From assembly GCA_951406725.2 (NCBI GenBank), contig OX597830.1, forward strand, positions 68,820,001-68,884,000: 64,000 bases of DNA, given 5' to 3'. The DNA is from Octopus vulgaris (taxonomy: Eukaryota). The position numbers and the translations under genes are program-made. Each line of letters opens with the position of its first letter. Within the stretch, counting starts at the first letter, position 1. The notes under the pieces were generated by a model. That model was not told where the DNA came from and did no database searches. It saw only the letters and a program-made list of their open reading frames with translations. This document shows, one piece after another, positions 20,627-60,081 of this stretch.

Positions 20627-20679
20627 ATTCGAAGAGGTGGAGGACGAAGGCCGGTGGCAATGGCATCTTCTGCCAATGG
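20627..20679 (+). CDS. Micro-exon A1 (53 nt, phase 0->2) of an unannotated modular micro-exon gene; IRRGGGRRPVAMASSAN(G)
   Basis: Acceptor ttattctctAG, donor GTAAGT. Flanks 20200-21050 are homologous to those of A2 and A3. Length 3n+2. Confidence 0.75.
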
Positions 20680-21379
20680 GTAAGTAGACAAACATTTCCA
20701 TATTACATTTACTCATCATATTTAAAGACACCACTAAACCTCTAAATCTCTTCATATCTGATCCTTAGAGAATTTTAAGTATTGCTTTTATCCTTTAGTA
20801 TTTGAACAATTTCAACAATAATAAAAGAAAGAATAAACTATATTTACCCCACCATATTACTGGTATTTTTATAAAGGGAAAGCGATGTTATTGAGTATTT
20901 TCCATGATGGAAAAATGAAAGAGAATCGACAGTTAAGAAATGATATATGGCAAGTATTTTGTACAACAGCCTGTGAGTTCAGGTAACTTAGTCACCTTAG
21001 AAAAATTTAGAACATTAATAACCAAAATAAGATTAATGTTTTACGAAGTCTCTACACCAAGTGAAAGAATTGATATAAAATATACGGATTTTATTAATTG
21101 GCAGTGAATTTCTACCTACAATGCTATTTAATATTACGTCATTTCAATGATATTTGACGTATTTTATTGTGACAGAAAGTTTTAGTTGAATGAATCGGTC
21201 CCAGATCTTATTCTGTTTTTAAGCGTGGTATTTATGCTATCCGAAGGGTATTATTAATTAATATCCTAGAAACAGCTGGAAGAGCTTCTATCTATAAATG
21301 CTCTAATATCTATGCAGCCTTGGTTTTTTATCTTATAACGCAAAAAATTCATATATGATAGATCGTTAGCTACTACACA

Positions 21380-21540
21380 CATTTTTCTCTCCTTGTTTTT
21401 TCTGTGTCCCTTTCTGTAGAAGAACGTAGGCTCGAAACGTAAAAGACTTTTTCTATTCCTGAGCGTTATACTAATACATCTGTTTGTTTTGTACACCACC
21501 TCTCTTCGTCCTTTGTTTTTTCGAAAACTCTCCCTATATA
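21380..21540 (+). mobile_element. Short interspersed repeat with gaagagcgtaggctcgaaacgt motif (Penelope-terminal-like); further copies at ~28140-28310 and ~35350-35560
   Basis: Three homologous copies in the window. Confidence 0.65.
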
Positions 21541-21599
21541 TATATATGGATTTCATAGACAGAAACTTACAGAAATCAATCGTTTATATATGTATGTAC

Positions 21600-21757
21600 A
21601 TATGTAAGTGTATGTGTGTGACTTTGTTTCTGTGTTTCGCCCACATCACTGATTCACAACTGCTGTCCGTTTATTTACATCCCCATAACTTACTGGTTTC
21701 ACAAGAAGAAACTAATAGAATAAGTACCAGGCTTATCAACATAAAAAAGCACTAGGC
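21600..21757 (+). mobile_element. SINE family 1, decayed
   Basis: catccccataactta...atagaataagtaccaggctt. Confidence 0.55.
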
Positions 21758-22849
21758 TGTCTCATATTTTTGTTTGCCCACTCAGTTGTATCTATCAATT
21801 TATATTTGTGTGTATATACACTTTGCCCGTGTTACATGTAATTGAAGAATTAGACTTTTCTGTTATATTTTCTGTAATGTTTCGAATTTCATCAAAATTG
21901 CAGATGAGGGTTATTTCCCTCTTTACACAACCTAACAAAATTGTAATCGTAACACATGTATCCCATACTAATGATTTTTATGCGCATATTCCAAAATTCT
22001 AGTCTTATAGAACCTGTTAAAAGGATTTTGCTCCTGAAAAATGGAGGTCATGGAACGCTCTAAAATGTGAGAGTTAAGGCCTCTATTGGTGGGGGATGTC
22101 TTAATGTCAAGCAGAGAAGTTGAATTGTTGAGAATCTTTTTAACTAGGGTCTTATATCTATTGCTTGAATTTCTTTGAAATAGGAAATATATGTTCACTG
22201 GGTTTGTAAAATAGAGCAAAGCTACAGGAAACCAAAGGACGAATCATCACAATAAGCAGTCAGCTACCCTACTCCAGTCGTTACCACTCCCAATGTAATA
22301 TTCCCAATGTAGTATTACAGCCGTAAGATGCATTACGAATCTATAGTAATTGGAAGGGCGTGACCCAACTGAAATAAACATTAACAACTGTGTGACGTGA
22401 GGGCTAAGGATAAATGAAAGTTGGAGTTTGCAAATGACCACTGTACTGATACGTAACTGGACAGAATAAATTTACAATCTATAAATGTCTTTGAATAACA
22501 AGTCACTCATCTGGGAAGGCCTTGAAATCAATGTTACTCTCTGGGGACTATGTGTGACTCAGTGATAATAAAAAGACTGAAAGGAGGTCTGCAATCAAAT
22601 AACTTTACTCAACACTTTGCAACTGAATCAGCGGAAGCAAAGATGCCTCCCATTTTCTTGACAATTTATGCACCACATTGCAGAAATCACAATCTAAGTG
22701 TATGCCAAAGCAAACTCTTACACTGTTGTACCATTGAATTACAAATAATGCTCATCTTTATGCTCGGGTGACCCTACAGCTTCCAAGAGTACAACTGTAT
22801 TCGTCTTTGCTTAGATAAAATGATTAAATTGTGGGTATTAAGTCCCCAT

Positions 22850-23335
22850 TAAGGGTCTTTCTAACTTGCAAGAAGATGAAATTTTATAAATATTACTTCA
22901 TTTGTATCTTATATCTGTGGTTAAAATTTCATCAGCAGCAAAAATATATGAATTGTCATGGGGGTTATGGCCTTTATACATAGAATATAATTCCCAAATT
23001 TCGTGAAGATCCATTCAGTACTTTTGACCTAATTTTGGATCATAAAAGAAATGACTAAAATTTGGGAGTTAAGGCCCTCAATATGGTGTCTTAGAATCCT
23101 CATATGAAGTGGAATCTTTGAGAATACTTCTTGATGTGTATCAATTACTTCAAATATCATAAGGATCCATTCAGTAATTTTGGTCCATGAAATTGTATGA
23201 AACACACAGCATTGCCCTTCTCCCTAGGCTTTGATTTTGTGTTCTAAATTTCATTATGATCGGTGCAGCAGTTTTTGAATATATAAGTAACACGCGAACA
23301 CACATAAAGACATTGACGTTGATATAATAGATATG
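22850..23335 (-). mobile_element. Non-autonomous Helitron/HINE-like element with internal subrepeats
   Basis: Minus strand starts atctattatatcaa...aaaaactgctgcaccgatcataatgaaatt. Subrepeat gatccattcagta occurs at ~23008 and ~23164. Confidence 0.45.
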
Positions 23336-23999
23336 AATAATGTTGAAAAAAGCCTGCGAAACGCAGAACATAAACAAATGTGGCGTTAACAAAAAAAAAA
23401 GCACGAAGGAGTTCCAACAATAATAATCCAACAATGCAACACTCACGTACGAAATGAACTACTCCAAAGGCGAAGAAATTTGGAATGCCAGGAATGCTAT
23501 TCAAGTTCATTTTTATAGCCATAACCTCCACGAGATGCACGTGCATTTCGGTTTTCTTTTCAATAGTTTGCGACTGCTACCCACGACATTCAACGCAGCT
23601 GCATTTTGGCGTCCCGTTTCAGGAAAGTCTAAAGATTGCCTGTAATTTGGGTCTCAGCCATAAATCAGCATGTTTTGGAATATTTACTCTTACGTCACTG
23701 AAATATATTTAGAATATAAAATGACATTTGAAAAAGATTGCGTTTCTTTTGCGATTCAGTGTACATTAGGAAATCGTAGATAGTGACCACACAGCAATGC
23801 CAAATAATATCATAAGCACTGGGAGTGTAAGATACGAAGTCAAACGTAACGAAAAGGAAGAAAACAACGAAAGGCAACAAACCCAGGCCGCATGAATGTA
23901 TAATGATGAGCTATATGCACGAAATCAGAACACCACAGACAAAAAATATGAACAGGAAGGAAAGCGAAACAAATCTAAAACCTTAAAAGAGTGATTATG

Positions 24000-25345
24000 A
24001 TACTCTAAATATGAATATAATCAAAGAATTGAAAGGCTCAGATCTCAGTATGGATAACTGACTGTAGCTCCCCAAAATTAAGATTGATATTAAAGCCACA
24101 TTAATAATAAATAATAGGAAACTGGCCGTCACGGAACTAATACCCACAGAAACAAACGTCAGTATAATCAGGTTAAATGCTATAATATATCAAAGCTGGA
24201 TACCCTCTCAAACCCATCCAAACAGGAGAATTACCACCTAAAAAAATCTTGTGGATAAAGAATATCTAGAAAGAGATATAAAATAAAAGAAAGGATCTCT
24301 CAGTCCTTAAGGAAATTAGTAGACAATCAACACTACTAAGCAACAAGAACAGAACTAAAATACTATGGAAATAGAAAATTCTAGAACAAAGTATACCTGG
24401 GATAAAAGAACAGCTAAAGCAAGATATCCTCGCCAAAGTACAAAAAATCCGCCAGTATGAGATACGCCAACGTTTCTTTGAACAAAACAAACAGTTCTAC
24501 TCCAATTTCAAAAGATTCTACCTAGAACTTGGCAAAAATAAAATAGAGATCAATGGAAAGAAATATGGTCGGTGAGGGAACAACCTAGGAAAAGGTCTTT
24601 CAAAATAACAAAAACAGCTCCTCTACAAATCTGGACTCCTATAACAACTGAAGAGGTCGGCAACCATGCACTACAAGGTCTCCAATTTCTGGTTGAAATA
24701 TCAAACAGGAATACAGAAAACGATGCCCAGGAAATTTGATGAAATACTAAAAGAACCTGAGACAATATTTAAAGGGCCCATAGAAGGGAAACATTTCCTG
24801 ATTAGCAAGTCCACTGAAACGGGAAACCCACAAAATTACAAACCGATAACTTGTCTCGCTACAATTTACAAAACCTTTACTGCAGAGATTGGGCAAACAT
24901 CTGGAAGATAACAACCTGATTCTGAAACAGAAGAAGGGGTGCTGCAAAAGCATCAGCTACCTGTCAATAAAGCCATAACTGAAGACAGCCGACAAGAGAA
25001 GAATGGGGCAAGTATGACTGGGATCGATTATCGAAAAGCTTTTGATAATATTCTATGACCAAAGTAACGACAATAACCGAAAGAGAGCCGTCCCCGTTAG
25101 AACAGTAATATTTCTGGGAGACACGATCTTTCCACTCTTTCTGCTTGGCACTGATACCTTTATCTGACGTGCTAAATAGAATTAGATATGGATACAACTT
25201 TTACGGGAAAACAATCGACCAACTCTTGTATAAGAATGATCTAAAACTATACGCTACAAATGATAAACAGCTGGAAACAGTACAAGAGAGAGTACATGCC
25301 TTTGCCAAAGAAATAAACATGGAATTTGGCTTAGAAAAATGATAA
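24000..25345 (+). mobile_element. Degenerate R4/Dong-like LINE RT region
   Basis: NYKPITCLATIYK, LALIPLS and LLYKNDLKLYA (decayed YMDDLKLY), MEFGLEK. Confidence 0.8.
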
Positions 25346-25689
25346 AGTATTAGCGAAAAACTGATGAAGAATTAGCGAGTATCTGTGACTTATACATATA
25401 CGTTTTTAGCTGTTGCTTATTTCCATATATGGCTGTGCGCGCGCGCGTGCAAAATAGTGAGTTAAAAAACGAACATGAAAACAAACGGGACAACGTACAC
25501 AAAAATGTATTATAGCTTGACGCCCACTGAAAGGAGTAGGTATGACATTTCGATCATTTACACACACACACACACACATATATATACATATATATATATA
25601 TATATAAATATATATATGTATATATATGTATATATTATAGATAATATATGCCTATATACATACGCATATGTACATACTTACATTTATAC

Positions 25690-25759
<70 letters not shown>

Positions 25760-26311
25760 ATATGCATATCTGGGCATAGGACGTCATTAAACGTGTACAA
25801 AAATACGAAGCACGTGTACATGGAACACGAACTATTTTTTTCGAACAACGAAAGACATAAATGGAAAACAAAACAAACATGAAGAACGACCGCTCATCAG
25901 TTGCTGGTTGTTTCTCTATTCTCGTATTTCGAGCATTTAACAACAATATACGCATTCGATAAAACAGTTGCTCCCGCAAAGCAAATTAAGTAGAATTTGG
26001 GATTTTGCGGAGGATCAAAATAGGTAACACAACCAGGACAGTGAAAAGAAACAGGAAGGGCTGTTAAGCCTAAACGAGGTTGTGGTGACGAACGCGTAAA
26101 TTAAGCTAGGACATGATACAAGCAAGAACACGTCTTCCTTCTTCCAGCTACAACGGAGAGAAAATAAGAAAGATGTCCGATGGTCACGCGGGAGCCACGT
26201 GAGCAAGGAAGAGTGAAGGAGAGAATAACAGAGTAATAGGATAGAACAGTGGGAGAAGAGCAGGTAAAATAGTAATAATGATGATAATAATAATAATAAT
26301 AATAATAATAT

Positions 26312-26820
26312 ATATATATATATATAAAACTCTAGTTGTGTGAGTGTCTGTCCCCTTCGATTTAGATTCCTAACTCCTCCCACATTTTGCGGTACAGTTT
26401 AACCAAATTCGGGTATCTTATAGTCGTGATTCATATCGAGCCCGTCTGACTATTAGCGCGCGTCAACGATGAGTCTACGATTTTAAAAATAATTTAACAT
26501 CATTTTTTATTCCATTTTAATGCATAAAATGCATCGTGTGTCGATGGCGGCGAAGTTGGCGTCCACGCTCACAGCTGCACCTGTTTGCTTCTCCCCCTTC
26601 CCTCCCTCGTGAAGCTGTGGGGAAGGGAGTGTAAAGAAATCAACGTCGTAATGCGTTGTGAAGGAAACCAGCGTTCTTTTAGAACAACGATTTCATGGCT
26701 TGAAGACACCAAAACAAAAATGGCTAAGAAAGCCCGAATTTATAAGGGAAGTAACTCTCTAAAAATGCTTATATAGTTATTTCCCTTACAAACCCGAGCA
26801 ACGCCGGGCGATACTGCTAG
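26312..26820 (+). mobile_element. Non-autonomous Helitron
   Basis: Subterminal hairpin cccgagcaacgccggg followed by CTAG|T at 26817-26821; 5' end tatatataaaa merges into (TA)n. Confidence 0.8.
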
Positions 26821-26949
26821 TATATATATAAAAGGAAAAAGTAAAAAGAAACAAAGAAAATACACACTAGGCATAAAAGTAATGGTTCTTTTTCTTAGAA
26901 CAAAGATACATATATATACAATTAAATGATTTGAGGGGAAATTAAGAAG

Positions 26950-42600: not shown

Positions 42601-43171
42601 ATACTATAACCATCTTGTTATTATATGCACACGTACATCCACACATTAACTATATATTAAAGCTTCATCCAAATAAAATTTTGTATTACTTTCTTTCTCT
42701 GAAGAATTTCTAATAGGAGAATTCTTACATATTCCTGTTCCCTGTTTATCTTAGCAACTCGTATTAGGAAATTAAACATGTGTAATTAGTAATAAATTAT
42801 ACAAAAAAATTTTTCCTGTGTACTGTGTGTCCCACGTTATCTCTCCAAGTATTGTGTTTTCCACATGTACCGTTAATATCTTACGCCTAATATTATCGAT
42901 AAAGTCGAAGTGAAAACCAAATATATAGTACGAGTGATTAACTGGAAAATATATGACCAAATGTAACAAGAGTTGTTTCATCAATGTCCAATGTGAAATT
43001 TGGCATAATTTCTACAGTTGGCTTCCTTTCCTAATCCTAACCACTTTACAGAGTGTACTGGGGACCTTTTTGCATGCCACCATCAATACTGAAGTTTCCA
43101 CGCAGCTGCTAAGAATATTGGTAGGTTTTAAGTTGGGGAATGAAGAGATACAGTAAGGAAAGAGTGGGTTG

Positions 43172-43249
43172 CAGAGAAGGATCTTCTCAGAGAAGGATCT
43201 TCTCAGAGAAGGATCTTCTCAGAGAAGGATCTTCTCAGAGAAGGTTCTT
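43172..43249. repeat. 16-bp minisatellite CAGAGAAGGATCTTCT, about 4.8 copies
   Basis: Visible directly; the repeat contains the hairpin GAGAAG-GAT-CTTCTC. Confidence 0.9.
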
Positions 43250-43594
43250 GTCGTGTTTTAGCTGTTTATCTTTAGAGGTTTGGGCGAGAATAATGAAGAG
43301 CTGAAAAGGTATAGATAATAATGCTCAGGTGTCTAGGTGGCGCTTCAACGTGAATAGAAGTGGGTAGGAACAAGGAAAGAGGTGTGTGGATTGGTGGGGT
43401 TGTAAAAAGGATTTGGTTAGCAAAAGATGGAGAAATGAGAAACGGAAAGGGAGGCAAGGACCAACTGTAAAGATTGGATAAAGGATGGGGTTGAACAAAT
43501 GAGCCAAGACCAAAGAGAAGTGCACTTTCAAAATAAGAAAGAGGGAGATCAACAGAATCGGGAACACATGAGTCAAACGCAAAGACAGCTGCAC

Positions 43595-43883
43595 TTCGTG
43601 AGGGGATTTGGTAGACGGAAACTGAAAGAAACCCGTTATGTATAAATATATGTGTGTGTGTGTGTGTGAATTTGTGTCTGTATTTGTGCCCCTCACTACC
43701 ATCGCTTGATAACCGATGTTGGTGTGTTTGCGTCCCTGTAACCTAGCTGTTTGGCAGAATAGTTTGCTAGAATAAGCACCAGGCTTACAAGAAATAAGTT
43801 CAGAAGTCGATTTCTTCGACTAAAGGGCGATATTCCAGCATCGTCACAGTCAAATAACTGAAACAAGTAAAAGAGTAAAAGAA
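43595..43883 (+). mobile_element. SINE family 1
   Basis: ggatttggtagacggaaactgaaagaa...actgaaacaagtaaaaga. Confidence 0.88.
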
Positions 43884-44033
43884 TAGCAGAAATAGGTTCC
43901 GTTCCACTAAACCAAGAAGGTTCTTTGAATATGTGCGATGCATTTTATGGCTAACTAGTAATACTGCTTCCGTATGCGTAACTGAGATATTTGGGTTGGA
44001 TTATATAGTTATTGCTTTGTTTTCAATTTATTC

Positions 44034-44255
44034 CAAGGCGGTTAGCTGACAGATTCGTTAACAGGCGGGACAAAATGCTTGGCGGTACTTCCCCCCGTCA
44101 CTACGTTCTGAGTTCAAATTCTGCCATGGTCGACTTTGTCGTTCATCCTTTCGGGGTCGATGCAATAAGTACCAGTTCCGTACATGCGTTGATGTAATCG
44201 TGTTATCGCGTCTCCCCAAATTTCAAGCCCTGTGCCCAGGGTAGCAAGGGTTATA
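44034..44255 (+). mobile_element. SINE family 2
   Basis: aaggcggttagctgacaga...ctgagttcaaattctgcc...cctttcggggtcgat. Confidence 0.85.
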
Positions 44256-44384
44256 TGCTTACTGATTTTACACCACTTTCTATATTCTGTAATTGTCACA
44301 ATACAGAAACATTTCTCATAGCACACGCACACAATTTACAGATGCTTACACTTATTTTCCGTGACATTTTAACGGGTCCAGTTA

Positions 44385-44458
44385 ATTATTATTATTATAT
44401 TTTATTATTATTATTGTTATTATTATTATTATTAATATATTTATTATTATTATTATTA

Positions 44459-44496
<38 letters not shown>

Positions 44497-45041
44497 GAGT
44501 GAGAGAGCAGTTCATGCCATCAAAGTGACACTGGGGTAAAATATACGAAGCCCAATATACCCATCATGACTACCCGTCTGATAAAGGTACATCAGGCACA
44601 TGCATCACAACCATATGTGCGCGACATGGTGATCTCATATCAAGATAAACAGCACATGACCTTGCAGGTGGGGCCCAGTTAGAATTTTCTTCAGGTTGAG
44701 TAGCCCATCCTGCTCAAAAGGTCCTTGAATAAGGGTTGCTTTAGGATGTTGAACGAAACACCTATGTTTCCAGAGGTGAACCATTCAAACTCCAAAGAAT
44801 CCCTCTCAACACATGGCCATGATGCTCCCCCACTACTTCTGCTCGTGATCAGAGATGCACGTATTGTCAGCCACTAAGGGACATGCTCAACTGGTTAAGG
44901 TCAAACAACTGACAAGCAAATCTGTGGTATTGAGCAGAATATTTGCTGTAGCCCATCTTTTATACCAAGACAAAACAATGTACATGATAACACTTCCAAT
45001 CAGTTAAGATCAGAAGCCATGAGAGCCACTGCCTGGTACTG

Positions 45042-45112
<71 letters not shown>

Positions 45113-46192
45113 TTTATTATTATTATTATTATTGATTGATTGATTGATTGATTGACTGAAAGAACAGCGCATGCAATCCAAATGACAGTGGAATGAAATA
45201 TATGAAGCCCAGTATAACCATCATGACTACCCTTTTGATAAGGGTACACCTAGCACATGCAACACAGCCACCCAGTTTAAGTAGATCACTCCGCTCAAGA
45301 GGTTCCTGAATAAGGCTTGTTTTAAGGATGATGAACGAAGCATCCATATCTCCAGACGTGAATTATTCAAAACCTGCAAGAATTTCTCTCAACACATGGC
45401 TATGATACTCCCCCACTACTTCTGCACAAATCGACAGCCACTAAAGGACATGCTCAACTGATTAAAGCAAACATCTGACAAGTAAATCTGTGATATTAAG
45501 CAGAATATTTGCTGTAGCACATCTTTTATACCAAAACAAATCAATGTAAATGATAGCATTTCCAATCAGTTAAGATCAGAAGACATGAGAGCCAGTGTCT
45601 GGTAATGCATCAGGGTATTTATTATTATTATTATTATTGAGTGAGAGAGCAGTTCATGCCATCAAAGTGACACTGGGGTAAAATATACGAAGCCCACTAT
45701 ACCCATCATGACTACCCGTCTGATAAAGGTACACCAGGCACATGCATCACAACCATATGTGCGCGACATGGTGATCTCATATCAAGATAAACAGCACATG
45801 ACCTTGCAGGTGGGGCCCAGTTAGAATTTTCTTCAGGTTGAGTAGCCCATCCCGCTCAAACGGTCCCTGAATAAGGGTTGTTTAAGGATGTTGAAAGAAC
45901 CACCCATGTTTCCAGAGGTGAACTATTCAAACCCCAAAGAATCCCTCTCAACACATGGCTATGATGCTCCCCCACTACTTCTGCTCGTGATCAGAGATGC
46001 ACATATCGTCAGCCACTAAGGGACATGCTCAACTGGTTAAGGTCAAACAACTGACAAGCAAATCTGTGGTATTGAGCAGAATATTTGCTGTAGCCCATCT
46101 TTTATACCAAGACAAAACAATGTACATGATAACACTTCCAATCAGTTAAGATCAGAAGCCATGAGAGCCACTGCCTGGTACTTCATCAGGGC

Positions 46193-46250
<58 letters not shown>

Positions 46251-46488
46251 TACTTGTAATGTGCATGTTTGTTACAATCACTAGCTGAGCCACACCTAGC
46301 GTCATAGGGCGAGTGAAGGATAAGAGATGTTACAGTATAACTGAAAGCTGGTGGATGTGAAGAATACTAAATAGAAACTTCAATCGATAAGGTTCTTCTT
46401 CTTCTTCTTCTTCTTCTTCTTCTTCTTCTTCTTCTTCTTCTTCTTCTTCTTCTTCTTCTTCTTCTTCTTCTCATTATTATTATTATTA

Positions 46489-46523
<35 letters not shown>

Positions 46524-47066
46524 GAGTGTGAGAGTAGTGCATCTTTCATAGTGAAACCGGAGCAAAATATAGGAAGCTCAGTATACCCATCATGACTAAC
46601 CTTCTAATGAGGTTACACCAAGCACATACATCACAAACATATGTACGCAGCATGGTGACGTCATATCAAGATAAATACCACTTAACCATGCGGGTGGAAT
46701 TTTCTTCAGGTCGAGTAGCGCACCTCGCTCAAAAGGTTCCTGAATAAGGTTTATTTTAAGGATGATGAACGAAGTACTCGTGTCTCTAGAGGTGAATTAA
46801 TTAAACCCCAAAGAATTCCTCTCAACACATAACTATGATGGTCCCCACTACTGCTACCCGTGATCAGAGATGCAAATATTGTCAGCCATTAAGAGACATG
46901 CTCAATTGGTTAAGGTCAAACAACTGACAAGCAAATCTGTGATATAGAGCAGAAAATTTGCTGTTGCCCATCCTTTATACCAAAAACAAATCAATGTATA
47001 TGATAACACTTCCAATCAGATAAGATGAGAAGCCACGAGGGACAGTTTCTGGTACGGCATCAGGGC

Positions 47067-47145
<79 letters not shown>

Positions 47146-47275
47146 GAGTGAGAGGGCAGTGCACGCCATCAAAGTGACACTGGGGTAAAATATACGATGC
47201 CCAGTATACCAATCGTGACTACTCGCTTGATAAGGGTACACCAGGCACATGCATCACAAGCATAAGTGCGCGACA
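44385..47275 (-). repeat. Five same-orientation copies of a ~550-bp non-coding element separated by (ATT)n tracts
   Basis: Units ~44497-45043, ~45157-45616, ~45639-46193, ~46524-47068 and truncated ~47146-47275 share the gagtgagagagcag..gccatcaaagtgacactgggg end. Strand is inferred. Confidence 0.92.
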
Positions 47276-47279
47276 AAAA

Positions 47280-49925
47280 TTAGACATTTGAACATGTCCA
47301 AAGTTAATTCCTTTAATTTGAATTTTTCACAATCTGTTAACAATCCCAGCATATACTTAAAAAACTTAGATGTGTTTCGACCAATGATTGGTCCAGGCCA
47401 TGTCTAACTTAATAGCACCACCTGATAGGATTATTTGAATCCTGTTTAAGTCAAGTTTTGCTTATGGTCCATTCAAGTAGTGAGTTTTTGTTGGGTGAGT
47501 TGTATCCAATTATGGGTGGCTTATCTGGTATTCCTTGAAGGAATCTATCCAGACTCCGTTTAAAGTTGGTGGGATCCTGTTCCTCTTTGATCTCTTTCGG
47601 GACAATGTTAAATAGGGCAGGGCCTGTTGAGGAAAAGAAATTATGTTGTAGTGTATATGTATGCTGTGATCTTGAATTGGGCAGGGGACGTATGGCCCGT
47701 GGTCCCAGTCTTGGATGAACCTTGAAGCTTATGTTCAGGTCGTTTGGGCAAAGTTAGCGGTATATTCTCCACATCGTACAAATGATGCACCGCTCACGGC
47801 GACGCTGGAGAGAGTAGAGTTTCAAGGCTTTAAGGCGATCCCAATAATCGAGAGCAGCCATGCCTTCAATTCGTTTAGTGAGTGCTCTCTGGGGTGATTC
47901 AATACTCGAGATGTTTTGTCTTGTATGGGGAAACCACAGTGGACAGCAGTATTCGAGGTGTGGCCGTACAAAGGAGGAGAAAAGTGGTATGATGATACCT
48001 TGTTCTCTGGACCGGAAAGTTCTTAAGATCCAGGAACTCATCCTACGAGCTATATCGACCTTCTTGTTGATGTGTGCACTCCAACTGAGATCGTCATCAA
48101 CAATTACACCTAGGTCTCTGATGTTGTTAGAGGCTGTGAGCGGTTCCCCTGAAGGAAGAGAGTATGGCTGTTTTAGTGAGGAATTTCTTCCAAAATGCAT
48201 CAGCTCAAATTTTCCCTCTTTCAGTTGCATTATGTTTCTGTCTGCCCATTGACTCACAGCATATAGATCAGACTGGAGTTGAGTTTGGTCTGCTTCTTCA
48301 TTGACGATATGCTGGAGCTTGGTGTCATCAGCAAATATTTTCACTTTGCAGTAATGTACGACACTGGAAAGGTTGTTTATGTAGATTATGAAGAGTAGCG
48401 AAATCAAGACAGTCCTCTGGGGGACACCGTTGGCGACTTTTGCTGGGCTTGAGTGGACTCCATCAACTACAACATGTTGTGTTCTATTCGCCAGGAAATA
48501 CTTGATCCAGTGTAGAACTTTTCCACGGATTCCAACATTTGCCAATTTTGAGAGTAGGATATTATGGTAAACCCCTGTCGAACGCTTTACTGAAGTCAAT
48601 ATATATGACATCAGAGTTCGAACCTGTTCCCAAGGCTTTGAATACATCTTCAATGTGGTGTAAGAGCTGTGTTAGACAGTCCCTGCCACAGCGAAAGCCA
48701 TGCTGATTTGCATTTAGGAGTTTCTGGGTCTCCAGGAAGTCAGCCATCCTTGATCTTAACACTCTTTCAAACACTTTGATGATGTGGGAGGTGAGTGAGA
48801 TTGGGCGATAGTTGAGTGCGAGGGATCTGTTTCCCTGTTTGAAAACCGGGATGACTGACTGGGATAGAAACTGTTTCGGTATATAACCTGCATCTAACGA
48901 ATTTCTCCAGAGGTTGGTCAGAGGGACTGCAAGTTGGTGTCTACATTCCTTCAGGAGACTAGCGGGGAATCTATCAGGGCCTACAGCAGAGTAGTATTTG
49001 ACCTCATTTATTGCTGCTATGATGTCAGTGGCAGTGAAGGTTATGTCCGAGATTTTATGTTGAGAGTCAACTTCGTTCACTTCTCTAACGTCAATATCAG
49101 TGGGAACACTAAAGACAGAGCAGTATTGTTTCTGCAGTATTTCTGCCATTTCTTTAGCATCGTGTTGGGGGATGCCGTTATCATCAATCAATGGCCCAAT
49201 GGGTGAGACAGTGGTTCTATGCTTATTTGCATAGGAATAGAACACTTTTGGGTTCTGTTTGATGTTTTTGATTACCCACTGTTCCTCCGAAGCTCTTTGA
49301 TTTTCAATGGAGGTTTTCATGTCGTTCTGCAGATGAAGTTTTTCCAGCTCCAGCCTTTTCATTGTTGTTGAATGTGGATGTTGTATGTGGGAATATTTTA
49401 ATTGGTTGATTTTCTTGTTGAGTCTTTTGATGCGCCTGATGAGTGTTTTTTTTCTTTTTAGGGAGGCGATTTCTGTTTGTGTTAGTAGATTTCGTGGGAG
49501 CGTGTTTAGAGCATGTATATGTGACAATGTTTTCAAAGTGCTGCCATGCGGTCTCAATATGGGTGGAATTGAGAGTAAAAGACCAGTCGATGAAAGACAG
49601 ATCCTTTCTGATTGCTCCTCAGTCCGCTTTGTGGAAGTTTATATTATCAAATGAGTGCCATGGAGTGGGATTGGCTGGTTTGGTTTTTATATGTCGGGAA
49701 TTGAAATTGCAGAGTACCATGTCGTGGTCTGAGAGGAGAGTTTTTTCAACTGAAATACTGTGAACGAAGCTAGAGTGATTGGTCAATACCAGATCCAAAA
49801 TCGTTTTATTATGTCTCGTTGGTTCGAGCACTAGCTGAGTCAGGAAGTATTCATCCATTAGATTAAAGAGCAGTTCTGCTGCTGCTCTATCTGATGTAGA
49901 GCACTTGCCTAACTTCAGAGTATAG
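47280..49925 (-). mobile_element. CR1-clade LINE, 5'-truncated, frameshifted ORF2
   Basis: PTR..ILDLVLTN..SDH (endonuclease end), NYRPISLTS, QHGFR, YIDFSKAFD, FADDTKL and VRPHLEYC across ORFs 49619-49858, 48562-49557 and 47754-48653. Confidence 0.93.
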
Positions 49926-49949
49926 GTGACGAAGGCTTCATTTTTTTTT

Positions 49950-50690
49950 TTTTATCAAATTTAAACACTGCCAGCGAGTATTGAACAGGGAACTTGTTTC
50001 ACTGATAAGTTTCGATAAATAATTGTTTCATCGAAACAAATCTCACTTGGTTTCTTGGGCATTATATAGTTACTATAATTTTCATGTTTGGCAGGCAATA
50101 ACTTTCTTAAAAGTAGTCGTACTTTTTTCTTGTCAGAACAACTTTTACATTCTTCTTTGAAACTTTCTACGTATCTTCAAAAACATGCAGAGAACGTAGT
50201 TCCTTTTTTCTGGATTATAACTGAACTCTCCAATGGCGTTTGCTACACTGTCTGGCGAGTATAAACCTGAAGTATTTTCAGACTGCTTCCATATTAACTC
50301 CAGCAAATGCTGGTTTTGTTGTTGCTGTTGTAATCGCTGTTGCAGCTGTTGTTGCTGGTGCAACTGCACCACCCAGGTCAATAAGTCCTCCATATTAACG
50401 ATTTTTTTCTCTGGTTCCATACCGAAACATTTTAACCCAAGCTTCGAATATCTCGTCACCACTTTTAAATCCTGGTGCTGGATAAAGAAAATTTAACGAA
50501 TTTGTGTAGAGGGGAGAAAGTATTTACGCGACACACTGCTATTACTGCTGCAGGAGGCTAATTCCCCTCTATAAACTGCTCACAGTCAATTGCTGCTGTC
50601 AACTCGACAGTTGTTGATTTTAAAGAAATGTGTCAGTGCACTTTTAGTCACTTGAGGTGGTCAGAATCCTTCCATATCACTTATATTCCC
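49950..50690 (-). mobile_element. Gypsy-type LTR retrotransposon 5' fragment (LTR remnant, PBS, gag start)
   Basis: PBS-like TGGTGACGAG on the minus strand at ~50452-50461, followed by a Q-rich gag-like segment ..SVANAIGEFSYNPE. Confidence 0.6.
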
Positions 50691-50791
50691 CATTCTCAGT
50701 TAAAAGATAAAGAGTGAATCATTCGATTCTAGACTCATCATGACAAATTCACTTTACTAATCTGGAATTTTCTCATTTATTCAATTTGCAG

Positions 50792-50837
50792 ACTCTCAAA
50801 CAAACCTGCCGTAGATGGTTTTACCAACAAAAGTAAA
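50792..50837 (+). CDS. Micro-exon B3 (46 nt, phase 2->0); LSNKPAVDGFTNKSK
   Basis: ttactaat...caatttgcAG acceptor, donor GTAAGT. Flanks ~50695-51190 align with the B1 flanks ~28815-29312. Confidence 0.75.
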
Positions 50838-52019
50838 GTAAGTCTTTTTAAATTTTAAAATACTTTTCTTTTGTTTTATTTGCCTGGACTGTGATGAATG
50901 GTTTGTTGAAATTTTCATCAATGGATATGTATAAAAAGAATACTGAATATCATTTTTATGAATATTTTTATATATTTTCTCACATTGGTGCAATCTTTTA
51001 TACTGGGGGGCCAAACTATTATTCTTCATTCTGGTAGAGCCAGCTACTATTTTTCCAATAAGTAGAGTTGTCTACTTTATCTCTTACTGGTAGTTCCAGA
51101 AACTATATTCCATATATTTAGAGACGCCTTCTATTTTTTTGTATTATTATGGCCAGTGTAGTAGTCTTCATTTTAGTACGGCGGGACACTAGAAAAGTCA
51201 TCATGTAGCTCGAACGACTATGCATCCTGAGGTAGGATAATTTTATGCAGAATTAGGAGTAGAAAGCAGTAAAGTATGAGCGAAAAAGGTTTGAGCAGAA
51301 CAAGTTCGTTGTTACACAGGAGAGAGATGAACGAGTGGAGAAGGAAAATGATGGACGATAGGGGTTACGAGGTGCCAAAAAGGACATTGAAGCTAAAAGA
51401 TTGGTAGAAATGCGTGGGGAGCAGGAGATATCTTATAATACAGAAGAACAGGAAAAACAAAGATGGCACAGTAAAAGAGACAAGAGAGATGACATGCTGT
51501 TGAGTAGGCTGAGGAATGAGCGGCGAAGAGAAAGGAGAGGGTGACAGGTATAGTGGTGGCGGCGGCGGCGAGATAATTTGATGGCATAGTGGGGTGGGTG
51601 GGAGTGATGAATGAAAGTGTGGGTGGAAAGAACAATATTAAATGATGAAGGATGGATAAATAGTGAATTTATTCTGGATAGAAAGAAAAGTGATATCAAG
51701 TAAGAACTGGTGTTAGGGAGTTGATGGAGATGGTGGGTGCCTTGAAAAGAATTGAAATTGGGTGAAAGGCCGAGTTAAACATAAATATACATACACAACT
51801 TTACAAGAGCACCGTTCCACTGAGGTGGTATGTCTTTTAGAGAACTACACATCACCAGTCATACTGGTTCTCTATAATTTCTTCCATGTGGTCCAAGCTC
51901 TTAATCACCTCTCTGAAGTTCAAGATCCTGAGATAAGCCTAACACATACACACAAACATACACACACACACGCACACACACACACGAGAGAGCTATTAAC
52001 ACTGGTCGACATCTTTTGA

Positions 52020-53960
52020 AAAGTCGTGTGCTTCTTAAGTGAGATTAGTTAATTCTTATGTATTTTCATGTCCTGAATCCAAATATCACCTTGAAAAATG
52101 CTTATTAGCTATAGGTTGAAAGACACATGACATATAATATTTGATTATTTTATTATAACGTACAGTTTTTGTCATTATGTTTAATGCTCTAGTCCGTATC
52201 TACTCCCTGCCTTTTTGCTTGACGCTTATGGAGGGCTGAAGAATAATGTCCAGCAAGCATCGTTTTCCTCCATTTGCACTGGTACCGCTGTTTCCATAGT
52301 TGAAATATCTTGGTAAAACCGTCAACGATGTTCGTCACTAACTGCCCCACAGCCCGCTAGAAAAACGTCCAAATGTGTCTCCAAACGCGGATTTAACATG
52401 ACATGTTACATCTCATATTCTTGTAAGCCTTGGCGAGGTTTTCCATTAGTTCTTTAAGAAGCTCTCAGCACTGAGGACCAATGAAGACTCCCTCTTTTAT
52501 CATAGCATTGCTCAGTGAGGGTGGGAATTCTGATGTTAAATACTTGAATCCTTGACCAGATTTGTCCATAGCTTTTACAAATTTTTTCATGAGCCCCACT
52601 TTTATGTGTAGTGATGGGAGAAAAATTTTGCTTGGCTCAGTGAGAGGTGGAAGCTGAACATTTTTCATCCCAAGTTTCAACGTTTGACGAGGTGACCAGT
52701 CTCTCCTGATACAGTGCGAACCTCTTGCGCAGCTATCCCATTCACACAGAAAGTAACAGAACTTGGTGTATCCGTCCTGAGAGCCCATCACAAAAGCAAC
52801 AACCTTTAAGTCATCACAGAGCTGCCATTGATGTTCACTATATTTTATGCATTGCAGCATAAGCTTTATATTCTCTTATGTTTTTTTTTTTCATATATGA
52901 TTCATAGCCCACATGAACTGAAGGTTCACTATTGCTATTATGCAACAAGAGAGCTTTCAGGCAAATTTTTCATGAATCTATGAACAGCCTCCAGTGACTG
53001 GGTTCGTATTTAATATCAAGTGCTTCCATCAGACCATTAATATTTTTGCAGGCCAATAAATCACCTTCCATTATGAAAAAATTGCTGAACTGTTGCTGAC
53101 GGTCATGAAATTTTGAAAGTTTACATCAGCTATTCGGAGATTTCACTGTTGAAGACGAGAGCCTAGCAGCTCTGCCCTATTCTCAGGTAGTCATAGATCC
53201 TTGTCAAGGCCATGGAAATCCCGTTGTGATCTAGAGGAGTGTGTTTCATCAAAATTTTGGTCATTCTGCAATCCAGCACTGTTATCCCCTTCTGCTTCCT
53301 CTTCACCCCCTTCTTCATCTGACTCGAAGAATATGGAAGTTGGTGCATCAGGAACAGATAGACATTTTCCACGTGGAACCTGGCGCATACCTAATGGAAT
53401 ATTTCGATATTCATGGGACTCTTTTTTGAAAAGCCCTTTTTCACTGGAAGTACCATGCAGAAATAACAATTGCCTGTATTGTCTGTTGGCTCCCGCCACG
53501 TAATTCGTACAATAAAAGATATTCCTTTCCTTTTCCTGTTCAACCATTGGTGAAGGCTAGTAGCACAAGTGTTGCAACACATGTGAGGAGCCCACTTCTT
53601 ATCCTGGTCGCCAATCTTGCATCCAAAACATAGGTGATATACCTTTCTAACCAGAGCAGTAATACGGCGCTTCTGCGATGCAAAGGTCACCTCACCACAA
53701 ATGTTGCAGAAGTTGTCTGCCTTATTCACACAAGTGCGAGGCATTTTAAAGAAGACGACAAACAATAAGCAGCTAAACAGAAAATTCGTTCATAAGTTTA
53801 TCATTAGCAGAAGTGTTTATATCATTCAGTAGAAAAATAAAATTAATATAAAATGCTTCATATGCATATCAACAGCTTGCTCAATGAATATTTATTATAA
53901 GTTTAAAAAGTGTTTGACTAGGAAAATCATTTACCTTTTACTTCAGTATTTAAACTTGCA
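52020..53960 (-). mobile_element. Chapaev3-like (CMC) DNA transposon with disrupted transposase
   Basis: MPRTCVNKADNFCNICGE..FGCKIGDQDKKWAPHMCC..WREPT..CYFC, then DLKVV..GYTKFCYFLCEWDS and LPSLHIKVGLMKKFVKAM. Family assignment is from motif recall; ends are approximate. Confidence 0.7.
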
Positions 53961-54619
53961 CAGCACAACCACATCCTACGACTTCTCTAACAATCCTGAA
54001 GGGCAGTGCAACTGTGAGTGCGATAAGCAACTGTGAGTGCGATAAGAAACATACTACTGCGTGCTTTTGGAAATTTGTTTTTAATAGGATACCAACGTTG
54101 GCGGCGGAATTTATCTTGAAGGTTTCACCAATGAATAGATCTTTCAATTGATGGAGGCTACAAAAATATTAAATATATTAAACAACAAGATCATTTATCT
54201 TTAGCATCTGTTCTTTCCTTCCTTTCATTTTAGTCTCTATTTTTTAAATATGCATTAGGTGTATTGTATAACTTTCTCAGCCTGACAGATGTTTAAATTG
54301 GTGAAATAAAATTCTCTTATCATCTTGTGGCTCTGTTTCTATCCGGAAGATTTGATTCATTCCAATCCCATGTCAAAACCAGTGTACCATGCTAAAAACT
54401 ATAAATCAGTAAAAAACAAATTCATGTGTACTTGTGTTAATATGGATTGGATTATCTCTTCCAGATAATTGTAGTTATACTTATTTATTATAGTATTTCT
54501 GTTCAGTTATGTCATCTCTGTATAATTTGTTATAGAATTTGAAACTCTGTGTTATTAATGCCAGATGCTGAAATCTCATCATTCCTGCAAACATTCATAT
54601 TATTTTCTTTTATTTTCAG

Positions 54620-54660
54620 AAATCTGATAAGAAATGGATAGAGGAAAACATTAAACTAAG
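54620..54660 (+). CDS. Micro-exon A4 (41 nt, phase 0->2); KSDKKWIEENIKL(R)
   Basis: Strong acceptor ttttcttttattttcAG and donor AG/GTAATT. Length 3n+2 and open. Flank homology to A1-A3 is weak. Confidence 0.62.
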
Positions 54661-56213
54661 GTAATTCAAGAAATATGCCCCTAAATTTTACAATGTATAA
54701 GTACACATATATTAGGATTTCAGTTATGGTAATGTAAATTGAAACATTTTTATCAGTTGAGATTTTTCCAGTAATTAGTATACAAAAACATCGCTTAGAG
54801 ATGTGGACATCCAAAAGCAATGGGCGGGAGAGGTAACTAAAAGAATCTCTTAATTGTTGATTTCCATATAAGTCATTTTTTCTTATGTGAAATTTGACTG
54901 GCGACTGTTGGTGCTGCCACCTACAGTTGCTTTCGGAATAAGAGAAGATGAGAAAGAAAGTTTACTAAGAAATAGGGAGAGAGTAAGGTTTTCTATTTTC
55001 TTTACTTTTAACAGTGGATTAGAGATGCAGAAGGCGAGAGACAGTGATAGAATGAGGGAAAGTTTCTTACATGTTTAGGATTTCATTCCAGTAGTTTTTC
55101 AAAGATATTGTTTTATTTCTCTTGTTAATTTTCCCCCTCCAGTGCTTATTCGCCTTGTTAGATTGTTCTTCATACAGACTTGACTACCATTTCCTTTACA
55201 AACTACATGCACACCGCTCTGTGTTTCTCTCGGGTGCAAACGTGGGATCTCTTGTCGTATTTCCACGCTGCTTATCACGTGAGGATGACTTAGAATTAAT
55301 TTCCAATATGTTTCATCTCGCCATGGTACCTTTCCTTTTGTCTTGTGTGTAGCATTCATCGTTCGAATCACACGTGGGAAATGTGACAGGTAACTGTTGT
55401 TGCTGCTACCTACAGATGATTTTGAGTAAGAGAGAGAGAGAGAGAGAAAGTAAGTGAGTTACCTAGAAATAGAAGGGAGGGTGAGGTTTTCCTTTAAAGA
55501 GAAAGAACCACGCAGGGCTTATATTTTTTATTATTACAAGATTTTTTCTTACGAGGGAGAGAACATAAAATAATATTTCTATATAATTCAATTTTCCACC
55601 TCATTTTTAAGTGTCCTAGTAGCTGGAAATAACGTTATTTCGCTTTTCTTTGAGCATCCCAATACATCATAACTTAGTATCATGAGGCCAGTTGGACTAT
55701 GTTCATTTTAAAACATTTAGGAATTATATACAGTCGATTTTCTTATTTCCGTTTTCTTTCTTTTTTTTCTTAAACGCTTAGCACTTAAGAAAAGAAGTGA
55801 AGAGATAGAAGCAGAGAAATAAAATCTCTGGGGTTTTCTCATAATAATTTGGGAATATATTAAATTGTTACATTTCCAAATCCTACTCCCTTAGATCACC
55901 GGTATTATTTATGAAAAGCATAAAAATGGAGATCAACAGAAGACTAAAAAAAGTTAAATTTAATTGGTGTTTGATATAACAGTATATCATTTCTGTTCAA
56001 TCATTACTCTTAATACAGCAAAGGCATAAATAATTTTAACAATCACACACATGTTTATGAGTGAAAGAGGTTAGGTTTTGTGATGCCGATTTGTTTCTCT
56101 TTTATATAAAGAACAAATTAAAGTGAATTAAGCAAAAGTTAAAACTGGTTTGTGAACTCAGTGGGAAATCCACAGCATCTGCTAATAATGATCCTAATTA
56201 TATTTATGGAGAG

Positions 56214-56255
<42 letters not shown>

Positions 56256-56792
56256 AAGAGATTTTGAAATTTTACTTTTCTGGCTGGGGACTTGATCTAA
56301 TTTTATGTGAAGAAACTGAAATGAGTTCATCATAGATGATGAGTTATAACCACGACAACGTATATTGTTAGAAGTGTTTTCTTATATAATATTAAATATG
56401 AAGAAGTCTCAAAAGGTTAAATCGAACATGCATTTTGGAAGTTTGAGATGAAAATCAAAATGTCTAGCTTTATTGTTACTTAAAAATTCTATAAATGCCA
56501 GTTTCCCCTCTTTCCCAAGATGTTAGGGCGAAAGCAGTAATTAAAACATGAAATCCAAAATATGAGAAATCCTGGTCTTTGTGTTCCGCAGCAAATGTAA
56601 ATCATAGAAAGAAAATATATGGAAAATTTAAAAGAAAGTCAGCGTATTTAGCCAATTGGAAATGAAAAAGATGGCAAACATTGAAGCAAAAGACATTTTA
56701 TTGGAGAAAGATATCTTTTGCAATGAAAATGTGTTGCTGTGAAGATTTAATTTTGATGTAGAGGCATGTAAGAGAAACATCCTCCTCCTCCT

Positions 56793-56823
<31 letters not shown>

Positions 56824-56864
56824 ATCATCATCATCATCATCATCACCATCATCATCATCACTAT

Positions 56865-57475
56865 TTAACGTCCATCCACCTTGCTGCTACGGGTTTGACG
56901 GTGTGACAGGAGCTGGCCATCCAAGAAGCTCTCCAGACTCCAATTGTCTGTTTTTACATGGTTTCTAGGGCTGGATGCCTTCCCTAACGCCAACCACTTT
57001 GCAGAGTGTGCTGGGTGCACTTTACGTGCCACCGGCACGGGTTCATTTTACATGGCACTAGAACCTGTAAATCACATGCCTGTGTATATGGATGACCGGG
57101 ATATTACTTAGCGTGGTACGTCTTTTCAAGTACAGCAGATCATCACAACTCCCGGTCCCTTGATATTTCCTCAGTGTAGCCCAGTGTCTGAAGATACTTT
57201 CTCACCATTTCGTCCCATCGCATCTTCCCCCGCGTATTCCATCCACAAGTTCTCTCCACAATTAGGGATCAGCTCTTCTTTATGCAACCGTCCTCATCCA
57301 CACGCAACACATGATCAAACCAGCGCAGTCTCTTCTCTTGCACACAACATCTGATGCCTCTTAAATCATATAGTTTTCCTCTTAAATCATATACACTCTG
57401 ACATCCAGCGGAGCATTCTAGCTTCGTTTCTTTCAAGTGTTCGCAAGTCATCTGTTGTCATAGCTCATATTCCAC
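56865..57475 (-). mobile_element. RTE-1-type LINE 3' end with UTR and (CAT)n tail; related tail at ~43015-43090
   Basis: RGIRCCVQEKRLRWFDHVLRVDED. Confidence 0.7.
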
Positions 57476-58029
57476 CGCCAGTGGTTTCATTAAAATAAAT
57501 CCAACGGTAATGGGGAATCTACAAAAAAAATTTAACCTGAATATCGAAAAATGTTTCTGTCTTTAACTTTTTTGATGTACTACAATTTGCTGTTAATGTT
57601 ATTCTCGTTTTGTTTTTAAAAAGAAATATAATTCGTCTAATGTTGATTACGATACTATTTCCACTTTTTGCAAAAATTTCCGAGATGATAGTGGCTTATA
57701 CCTGTCATTCTGGCACCTTTTCATTTTCATGGAAGTGAAGCATAATTTTGAAGAAAAGTAATTTTATGGAAACGAAATCATTAATCTGTAATCCTTGAAC
57801 ATTTTTCTATTCAATTTTTATTAACTTTGGCAGCTGCTCTATTTATCTGCAAAAGACATAGGAGTAACACATATGCATAAAGTGACTGGCTTAATATACC
57901 TGCAGCAGGATTAAATGAAGTATGTCTACATTGCTGCTATCAGTTCCAACATTATTTATTCATTTTTTTAAAATTATTTTCTTTTGCTTCTATTCAGAAT
58001 ATATATTATACTCACACACAAAATATCTA

Positions 58030-59200
58030 AGAATGCCACAGAAAATTCAATTGACTGGATCTCAGACGAGTAAAATTTACAAAGAACAAAATGAAAACAT
58101 GCTGCTGTATTAGAAAAGACACAACACTGTGTAGAATTGTTATTTTCTTTGAAAAAAGAAAGCCTAGAGGCTAATAATGTAGAAACAGTATCAGACGTTC
58201 CTTTTGAAGAACCAGCTGCATTCCTAAGTAGATCTGCAGAAAAGAGGAAGAACGTATTACATCAAAACATTCAAGGTGAAGAATCCTCATGTCCTACTGT
58301 CATGAATAGCAAAGTAGCATCATGGGATCCAGACACAATCATATGATTTTCTGTCAGAGAAAAGTATTTGTCCATGTTCTTTCAGGCAAAATCATCCATA
58401 TGTTAAAATAAAAATGCCTCCGACACCTTCCCAGTATCTCGACACCATTATAAACCAAGTGAAGGCAAACTGGCTGGGCACTATCGTTGTTTAAAAAATT
58501 TAATGTTTTATACCATTCATGACAATGGTGAGCAGTTTTTTTAAAGATGTGACCCCTGTACAGCTCATCAGAGGGTAAGGTTTATTGTTTTTACTGCACT
58601 TTCCTGCAAGGTCAACATGACAGGTTTTCCAACAAGGAAGGCTTTACTGAAATGAGAAAAGCAGAGGAGAAACTGAAAACAGAAGAACAAAGTCAAGCCC
58701 CATCTTTTATGCAGGGATCATCTCATGTTAACAAGGTATTGGAAGAACAAGTCCAGGGAAACAAGAAATACTGGACTGAAGTATTGCATTCTTTCATGTA
58801 GTGACTGTGACAATATTTCTAGTTGAGAGAGGTCTGGCATTTAGAGGTAGTGAAGAGATAGTTGACTGAGAAATTTTCTGAGAATTATGGAACAATTTGA
58901 TCCATTTCTTATGGGTCACTTGAAAACCTTTGGCAATACTGGAAGTGGTAAGCAGTCGTACTTATCACCTACCATCTACGAAGAAATTGTTCTGTTGATG
59001 GCAAAACATATCAAGAATTATATTGTTGCAGATTTTAAAACTGCCAAGTATTTCCCTGTTTCTGTAGATCCAACACCAGAATGTTGCTCAGCTTTCAGTT
59101 ACTGTGTGTTACGTTCTTTCGGGTAAGCCAATAGAAATTTTGAATACTGCAGGAGACAGTCTTATGACAATGCCAGTATTATGTCCTGTCATTTTGACGA
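58030..59200 (+). mobile_element. Degenerate hAT transposase (ZMYM1-like type)
   Basis: FLVERGLAFRGSEE, then QFDPFL..HL..YLSPTIYEEI..AKYFPVSVDPTP; many stops. Confidence 0.78.
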
Positions 59201-59751
59201 TTGATGGTATGGAATGCGGAATTGGTTGTAGGTATGAGATTTCTAGTAGAGGAGAACGGAGAGAGGGTGTTCCTGTTGAGATAGGGTGTTGATGTGTGTA
59301 TCAGTGATACCTGGATAAGGTGGTCAGAGACCATCCAGCAGAGGCTATTTGTAGTAGCGGTAGAAAAGGCAGAGAAGACACAGCACAGTATGGGTCAGAA
59401 TTTGGTGTGTATTTGTAAGTGACTTCGTGCCAGTCAGTTGAGTAATCTTTTTCTCTCTGAATATGGTCTTATCATACCTCAGATGTGGAATGGTGAAACC
59501 CATTTTCTTAATTTATTTTGACGGCAACATATTTCTTATTTTTCCTTTTCAGTTTATTTAAAAGTAATCATTATTTGATTCAACTAAATTAAAATTTATT
59601 TATTTATTTCCGTGTATGGATTTATGTATCTATGTCGGTAATATTCATTGGAGTTGTTCTTTATCTCTTGATTTTGTCATTTTTCCTCTTCTACCTTCCC
59701 CATCACAACTTTACTTCAACAGTTCATTTGGTTTCTGTTTGTCTTTGATAG

Positions 59752-59836
59752 AAATTCTAAAGATGAGGAGCCATCAAAACCCTGTGATGCATTTGGTAAA
59801 ATAAAGTTTACAGGACATAATCAGGGAAATGCAATG
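59752..59836 (+). CDS. Micro-exon B4 (85 nt, phase 2->0); NSKDEEPSKPCDAFGKIKFTGHNQGNAM
   Basis: Acceptor tttgtctttgatAG, donor ATG/GTATTC. Downstream tgtttgtagaaattatccaat and ttttgtgaatattt resemble the B2/B3 downstream intron. An alternative donor exists after 59795. Confidence 0.55.

Positions 59837-60026: not shown

Positions 60027-60081
<55 letters not shown>

Follow-up and report, generated by a model that had tools for sequence, protein, structure and literature searches.

Micro-exons in Octopus vulgaris as the probable 5' end of a TRPM-beta-derived gene with tandem MHR1/2 units

The window analysed here, that is the whole stretch of 64,000 nucleotides (nt) at C17:68820001-68884000 of Octopus vulgaris (contig OX597830.1), contains eight very short exons, which most likely form the 5' part of a gene derived from TRPM-beta channels. 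A preliminary description had presented them as four duplicated pairs of A and B micro-exons with a stop-free frame and no recognised family, and we keep its exon labels. The features are listed in window positions; residues are compared with the gene models P0001 and P0012 of O. sinensis and P0010 of O. bimaculoides.

14521..14526, + strand: candidate end of the start-codon exon (Met-Gln, then a GT donor), unproven; the alternative start is an in-frame Met within A1
20627..20679, + strand: micro-exon A1, 53 nt, phase 0-2, N-terminal module 1; a homologous exon lies in a single-domain TRPM-beta paralogue at C17:43.014 Mb
28909..28957, + strand: micro-exon B1, 49 nt, phase 2-0; 13 of 16 residues identical to P0001 and 12 of 16 to P0010
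30867..30922, + strand: micro-exon A2, 56 nt, module 2; 17 of 18 residues as in P0001
37143..37212, + strand: micro-exon B2, 70 nt, rich in Ser and acidic residues; all 23 of 23 residues identical to P0001
42168..42226, + strand: micro-exon A3, 59 nt, module 3; 19 of 19 residues identical to both P0001 and P0012; run contigs show the joint 42226/50792
50792..50837, + strand: micro-exon B3, 46 nt; 15 of 15 residues as in P0001; both flanking joints in run contigs
54620..54660, + strand: "A4", exon 1 of TRPM MHR unit 1, 41 nt; the folded domain begins here, and paralogues open units 2, 3, 4 and 5
59752..59836, + strand: "B4", exon 2 of TRPM MHR unit 1, 85 nt; joint 54660/59752, donor in phase 0

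All eight segments, bounded by AG and GT, lie where they had been placed, their phases alternate and the joined 459 nt read through 153 codons of frame 0 without a stop. Of 20,000 random joins of eight AG..GT candidates drawn from the window, 8 were open; since 16 of 99 such candidates could serve as A and 13 of 99 as B if freely chosen, the open frame alone is weak evidence, and the case for exons is carried by paralogy, RNA joints and homology instead. Contigs from four sequencing runs, whose RNA status was guessed by the search tool, were compared with window positions 41600-61500 and counted from 92% likeness upward. The GT..AG joint 50837/54620 was found in all four runs and 54660/59752 in three; 42226/50792 also occurs in three, the fourth carrying it with two different letters that fit the B3 start of the 44.6-Mb copy. 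The four upstream junctions (20679/28909, 28957/30867, 30922/37143 and 37212/42168) are used in the public models P0001 and P0005, and the window exons had already been predicted in public Octopus models (P0001, XP_036366249.1). As the 92% threshold admits paralogues, the joints tell that the family is spliced in this way rather than proving the window copy to be the source. None of the records containing the stretch is listed as RNA, a blank which is no evidence on expression, and an Rfam search of the window gave 0 matches. Position 14521..14526 is the sole Met-Gln site with a GT donor of this kind 5' of A1 and is kept in six of seven compared copies (changed in one). The models P0005 and P0009 open with this Met-Gln, P0001 inside A1; a homologue of the start exon of the single-domain paralogue P0021 was looked for upstream of A1 and not found.

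The gene continues beyond the window. A profile search placed PF18139 (SLOG) exons next on the same + strand at C17:68885467, 68890763 and 68895098, the first of them, 1.5 kb past the window, being the exon that follows B4; its 59 residues are identical to P0001, a model of 1,423 amino acids (aa) with four PF18139 stretches. P0001 carries B2, A3, B3 and A4 unchanged and maps colinearly onto the window gene with about 1,400 residues over 200 kb. The 41 exons of our window-gene model are six from the modules, nine in each of three complete units of 1,107, 1,074 and 1,086 nt (about 360 aa each, starting and ending in phase 0), an A/B pair of 26 and 28 nt and six from unit 4, the last of which ends at 69054393. 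Its frame is open for 1,370 codons, i.e. 38 exons and part of the 39th. The segments are translated exons, as had been proposed. Unit-4 exon 2 occurs twice in tandem (C17:69025773 and 69031501) with two residues different, and the two copies may be mutually exclusive, because using both would break the frame.

Which of the pairs are duplicates of each other was judged by their intron flanks. A1-A3 group together (z 10-60), as do B1-B3 (z 3.8-33), which agrees with the proposed serial duplication of exon pairs, seen chiefly in the introns. The flanks of A4 match no other window exon on either side (z at most 1.8). For B4, the donor flank weakly matches B1-B3 (z 6.7-9.0), scoring higher against simple repeats of the window, and the acceptor flank weakly matches A2/A3 (z 5.5-6.6). 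Each downstream MHR unit opens with two exons that are close paralogues of A4 and B4; of the four pairs claimed, three (A1-B3) thus stand, while the fourth consists of two TRPM exons. With A4/B4 being MHR1 exons and the frame entering PF18139 just past the window, the statement that no family is recognisable falls, although B4 alone, too short a query, matched nothing in Pfam or among PDB sequences. A Cys-rich exon was sought between A4 and B4 without result, the run contigs joining the two directly. The modules may have descended long ago from the first MHR exon pair, a plausible origin with weak support.

The description of the N-terminus as hydrophilic and probably disordered fits: 77% of the first 111 residues are disorder-promoting, and in an alignment-based model of the near-identical P0012, whose N-terminus shares A3-A4 exactly, residues 1-79 are unstructured (predicted local distance difference test, pLDDT, about 31). 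The fold starts at A4, which aligns to the start of MHR1 in nvTRPM2 (PDB 6CO7) and reaches pLDDT 70-78. Fold matches of the P0012 model are TRPM3 (E 7e-57), nvTRPM2 (2e-56) and also TRPM4; a single-sequence fold of P0006 (pLDDT 35) was unusable. Each unit is 31-34% identical to nvTRPM2, with matches among PDB sequences too. N-terminal MHR1/2 is thus present, with exons over cut-off directly 3' of the window and the four stretches of P0001, and full-length paralogues add MHR3/4 and the pore (the gap-free copy described below; P0012 and P0016 with PF25508 and PF00520), including S6 and the TRP box.

The units depart from TRPM2 at sites of known function. The Cys3-His zinc subdomain of MHR1 (motif as in PMC9112350) is absent from all aligned units, in unit 1 because A4 splices directly to B4, and present in P0022, P0024 and nvTRPM2. 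ADP-ribose contacts of the nvTRPM2 N-site are T143, T179, Y264, R271, T307 and R329, and loss of Y264 or R329 raises the half-maximal effective concentration (EC50) more than 1,000-fold (PMC7201885). The three complete window units read I-L-F-R-T-P, I-L-gap-R-T-R and I-L-S-K-T-K at these positions, and P0016 reads I-L-P-R-T-G in unit 4 and I-L-S-R-T-Q in unit 5; only T307 is kept in all three window units, and the Y264 and R329 positions vary from unit to unit. No Nudix family was found in P0012, P0016, P0021, P0022 or P0024; the tail after S6 is 149-189 aa long. Classical ADP-ribose gating seems unlikely, because key contacts are altered and the NUDT9-H tail is missing.

On C17 the gene 5' end exists in eight copies of 97-100% identity. 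Six of them extend as far as A4 and have 3, 3, 4, 4, 4 and 6 modules; the sequence fetched covered neither the copy at 79.947 Mb nor the greater part of that at 67.75-68.0 Mb. Another 5'-end copy than that of the window was seen at C17:69122322-69205311 beside a scaffold gap, its modules inverted either side of 69135 kb and, in the part fetched, with no A4 or unit exon. By our own tally, 29 of 81 PF18139 matches are first exons, and 25 of these 29 belong to the window lineage (one of the 25 on C60). Pore-exon sets number five, at 80% or more to P0008 used as protein query, and unit 5 has three copies. A family search for Ion_trans gave no C17 match among the 150 of 279 candidates scored, whereas the protein query did find C17 pore exons. 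One paralogue, C17:79.248-79.693 Mb (-), is free of gaps (no N) and comprises 72 exons, 7,418 nt and about 2,470 codons in the order four modules, a hybrid of units 1 and 2, unit 3, an A/B pair, unit 4, a ten-exon linker, unit 5, MHR3/4, pore and a stop 63 nt into the last exon. Its linker (C17:79406813-79369214) consists of five exon pairs, in each of which an A4-type exon of 32 nt precedes a B-type one of 28-76 nt, all in phase 0-2-0, and shows the same duplication mechanism with A4 as template. Hybrid units are present both in the genome and in gene models.

Module copies change in an unusual way. All 54 fetched copies with at least 85% identity to A1-B3 keep phase, AG/GT and open frame, and their length changes only in multiples of three. 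Relative to the window copy, the distinct variants of the module exons comprise 77 non-synonymous and 6 synonymous ones, against a synonymous share of 26% predicted from the mutation spectrum of the flanks (naive p 1e-5), and 87 variants in 333 exon nt compare with 149 in 1,632 flank nt (0.26 vs 0.09 per nt). Decay of CpG sites was considered as a cause and rejected, only 6 of 83 variants lying in CpG context. The excess may hint at diversifying selection; it is a hint and no test, because the copies are related and gene conversion is likely. Core exons of recent copies differ by 104 non-synonymous to 17 synonymous changes, with no sign of purifying selection.

Other octopuses share the arrangement, the modules having been found only in Octopus in the searches made, which agrees with the proposed lineage-specific protein. 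The O. bimaculoides model P0010 (XP_052830016/7) covers units 1-4 and ends at unit-4 exon 6, and P0080 (XP_052830018) starts within unit-4 exon 8 and continues through unit 5 and MHR3/4 into the beginning of the membrane region; because of their adjacent accessions and complementary exons, we infer them to be the two parts of a single five-unit gene. A published survey assigns XP_052830018, like two sister paralogues, to TRPM-beta (PMC13143021, Table S1). O. bimaculoides isoforms differ by a 13-residue insert in the linker of units 4 and 5. In O. sinensis, isoforms contain unit 1 exons 1-5 joined to unit 5 exons 6-9, or unit 5 alone, or lack all module exons but one; such forms may reflect splicing, mis-mapped reads or a hybrid in the genome. 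In a tree of 29 rows all units form one clade (99/97) inside an Octopus radiation (100/99), units of the same type from different species group together and the cuttlefish-type P0024 lies outside; the five units are therefore older than the divergence from O. bimaculoides. As to a placement with TRPM-beta, the units nest among Octopus sequences together with P0024 (100/99), in a tree whose outgroups are few and long-branched. P0064, P0069 and P0077 were left out of the tree, the cutting step recognising no unit in them, and P0004 unit 3 and P0012 are hybrids whose tree positions do not indicate orthology. A metagenome scan gave 39 loci, all of them distant relatives or short matches.

Taken together, we put at roughly 75% the probability that the eight segments are 5' exons of an Octopus TRPM-beta-derived gene with four tandem MHR1/2 units, full-length members of which likely form a chain ending in a pore; that a multi-unit channel protein is actually made we regard as somewhat favoured. 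The six duplicated micro-exons would encode a predicted disordered tail, and A4/B4 would begin the first of four tandem units, the units of full-length members likely forming one chain that ends in the TRPM pore. Two-exon modules and nine-exon units are symmetric cassettes, and owing to this phase symmetry unequal crossing-over could add, drop or hybridise them without loss of frame. The product would be a tetrameric cation channel in which the last unit packs on MHR3/4 as usual, and the upstream units might add further domains for ligand binding or interaction, each tuned differently and set on flexible linkers made of micro-exons.

Several observations weigh against this reading. A loss of 1 nt in unit-4 exon 4 breaks the frame of the window copy, which loses colinearity at about C17:69066850, some 1.5 kb before the next exon expected from other copies, and shows no further exon before the scaffold gap at 69122222. 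Three exons of the gap-free copy are frameshifted, and alleles left unmerged may account for some of the copies at 97-99% identity. A transcript or protein combining four or more units with a pore was not found, neither among database proteins of 810-2,580 aa nor among those of 2,581-5,000 aa, the latter search being weak by the tool's own note. The run contigs cover three of the seven junctions, are of guessed kind and, at 92% likeness or more, may derive from paralogues. Zinc-subdomain loss, finally, impairs folding or function of vertebrate TRPM2 (PMC9112350).

The strongest alternative, which we nevertheless hold to be rather unlikely, is that the window copy and others stopping at unit 4 make a pore-less cytosolic SLOG protein of three to four units, a ligand binder or, by co-assembly, a modulator of TRPM-beta channels. 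The window copy indeed ends in unit 4 with no pore nearby: MHR3/MHR4 (PF25508) or pore/TRP-box exons were not found between 69054393 and 69224000, an interval in which the gap at 69122222 permits a mis-join. Six of the first nine homologues are SLOG-only multi-unit models (742-1,423 aa) and two more are SLOG-only, the models P0010 and P0003 owe their ends to read-through at the unit-4 exon 6 donor, and eight 5' ends face five pore-exon sets and three copies of unit 5. However, unit-4 exon 6 ends in an ordinary donor, followed in the gap-free copy by a 28-kb intron, of which the window copy retains about 12.5 kb colinear with other copies before a repeat nest extends up to the gap. Most other breaks sit at 100-N scaffold gaps (67565374, 67695403, 68083022, 68603507, 44495808 and 56965707), and truncation may therefore be an assembly effect. 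The contig whose first base is 67695503 opens with repeats of a related kind, carries the next exons and lacks a 5' half of its own; it is an unproven candidate for the continuation of the window copy or another copy.

Alternatively, most copies including that of the window could be transcribed, decaying segmental duplicates beside one or two working channels. This we consider unlikely, even though both modelled copies carry frameshifts, core exons lack a sign of purifying selection and a repeat nest occupies the unit-4 intron. The module copies all remain in phase, and module exons vary faster than their own introns, which decay alone would not bring about; N-termini of the window type and of the 68.30-Mb type recur in O. 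sinensis (P0001, P0012), and at three of the four lesion sites one base is missing from a short run or next to one, which would resemble consensus errors of long reads.

Less probable still is that the units never form one chain, units 4 and 5 being remnants of separate gene starts with promoters of their own, the long models read-through fusions and the working channels single-unit. The A/B pair before unit 4 and the five micro-exon pairs before unit 5 do look like gene starts, the O. sinensis channel isoforms P0012-P0015 have one unit only, and public models split the locus. Against this, all modelled unit-to-unit junctions are phase-compatible and open, units 1-4 are joined in models of three species, P0004 and P0016 cross from unit 4 into the linker, and unit order is identical in O. 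bimaculoides. The stand-alone, disordered protein of about 153 aa without a family, made of four A/B pairs as originally envisaged, agrees with the first 111 residues in their composition and their predicted disorder and with the empty searches for B4, but is almost certainly wrong, as B4 ends in phase 0 at a donor, the next exon is an in-frame SLOG exon and A4/B4 are MHR1 exons.

A bolder version of the multi-unit channel, which we find tentative and on balance doubtful, would be a hidden array of rapidly diversifying TRPM-beta genes with one pore served by up to five different MHR1/2 units, splicing and recombination of phase-matched exons building hybrid or variable-length sensor chains and pore-less copies acting as modulators. 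The O. sinensis isoforms joining unit 1 to unit 5 might be an example. If true, this would be a combinatorial sensory channel unlike any described TRP.

Compared with TRPM-beta channels such as nvTRPM2 and vertebrate TRPM2, the Octopus genes have SLOG/MHR1/2 in common and, in full-length paralogues, also MHR3/4, the six-helix pore, S6 and the TRP box. They differ in having four units in the window copy and five in the longest family form instead of one, in lacking Cys3-His and NUDT9-H, in changes of Y264/R329 in most units, and in the micro-exon tail and linkers. Architecture and expansion probably represent a variant of TRPM-beta that the literature searched does not describe. Single-domain Octopus paralogues (P0021, P0018 and P0022 types; C17:42.9-44.3 Mb) form sister lineages in the tree. 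P0021 has, as the window gene, homologous A, B and unit-exon-1 exons and a micro-exon array of its own; P0021 and P0018 lack the zinc motif like the window units, while P0022 keeps it. These types differ from the window gene in their one MHR1/2 unit, the kept R329 equivalent and one SLOG start each. At the P0021 locus (C17:43013806-43029403), at least eight small exons lie between MHR exons 1 and 2, where the zinc subdomain normally sits, and several of them have B-type flanks. LOC115221043 (O. sinensis, P0001) and LOC106871768 (O. bimaculoides, P0010) have the same exons and four SLOG units; they are labelled uncharacterized, their models end before the pore, and none of five identifiers tried occurs in the literature searched. 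Outside the octopuses, P0111 (Sanderia), P0112 and P0109 (oyster) hold two PF18139 stretches in one prediction, one of them with a pore, but with about 33-35% identity and two units only; they are single predictions and may be fused models. The same caution applies to P0108, which together with these three makes up the TRPM predictions of other animals with two or more SLOG stretches.

Published counts are low: one beta-TRPM for each cephalopod species listed (PMC13402157, Table 1), three in O. bimaculoides (PMC13143021, Table S1) and two TRPMs in O. vulgaris (PMC12919962), and the cephalopod TRP expansion has been called among the lowest in animals (bioRxiv 2021.11.14.466824; for further related literature see bioRxiv 2024.05.23.594666 and PMC7306681). 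No multi-MHR1/2 TRPM, nor this cluster, is described in the accessible literature searched, although subscription papers and supplements may hold one. Against these counts stand 25 first-SLOG-exon matches, eight gene 5' ends and five pore-exon sets, from one lineage and one chromosome, and octopuses likely carry a far more varied TRPM sensor set than published. If expressed whole, these proteins would allow the coupling of ligand binding to gating by MHR1/2, and the dispensability of the zinc subdomain, to be studied in a natural experiment, and would be a candidate Octopus-specific sensory receptor family. The micro-exons, for their part, illustrate how duplication of exon pairs builds disordered linkers.

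The window also contains remains of mobile elements and repeats. Reverse-transcriptase fragments (PF00078) lie at 7014-8558 (-) and 47757-49638 (-), the second in two frames, and a partial DDE transposase (PF01359) at 40598-40996 (+). Tandem repeats of about 560-870 nt, 78-96% alike and with (ATT)n between them, occupy 44385-47275 and are very deep in the run contigs, and a palindromic interspersed repeat at about 19885-20200, resembling a miniature inverted-repeat transposable element, has matches on many chromosomes.

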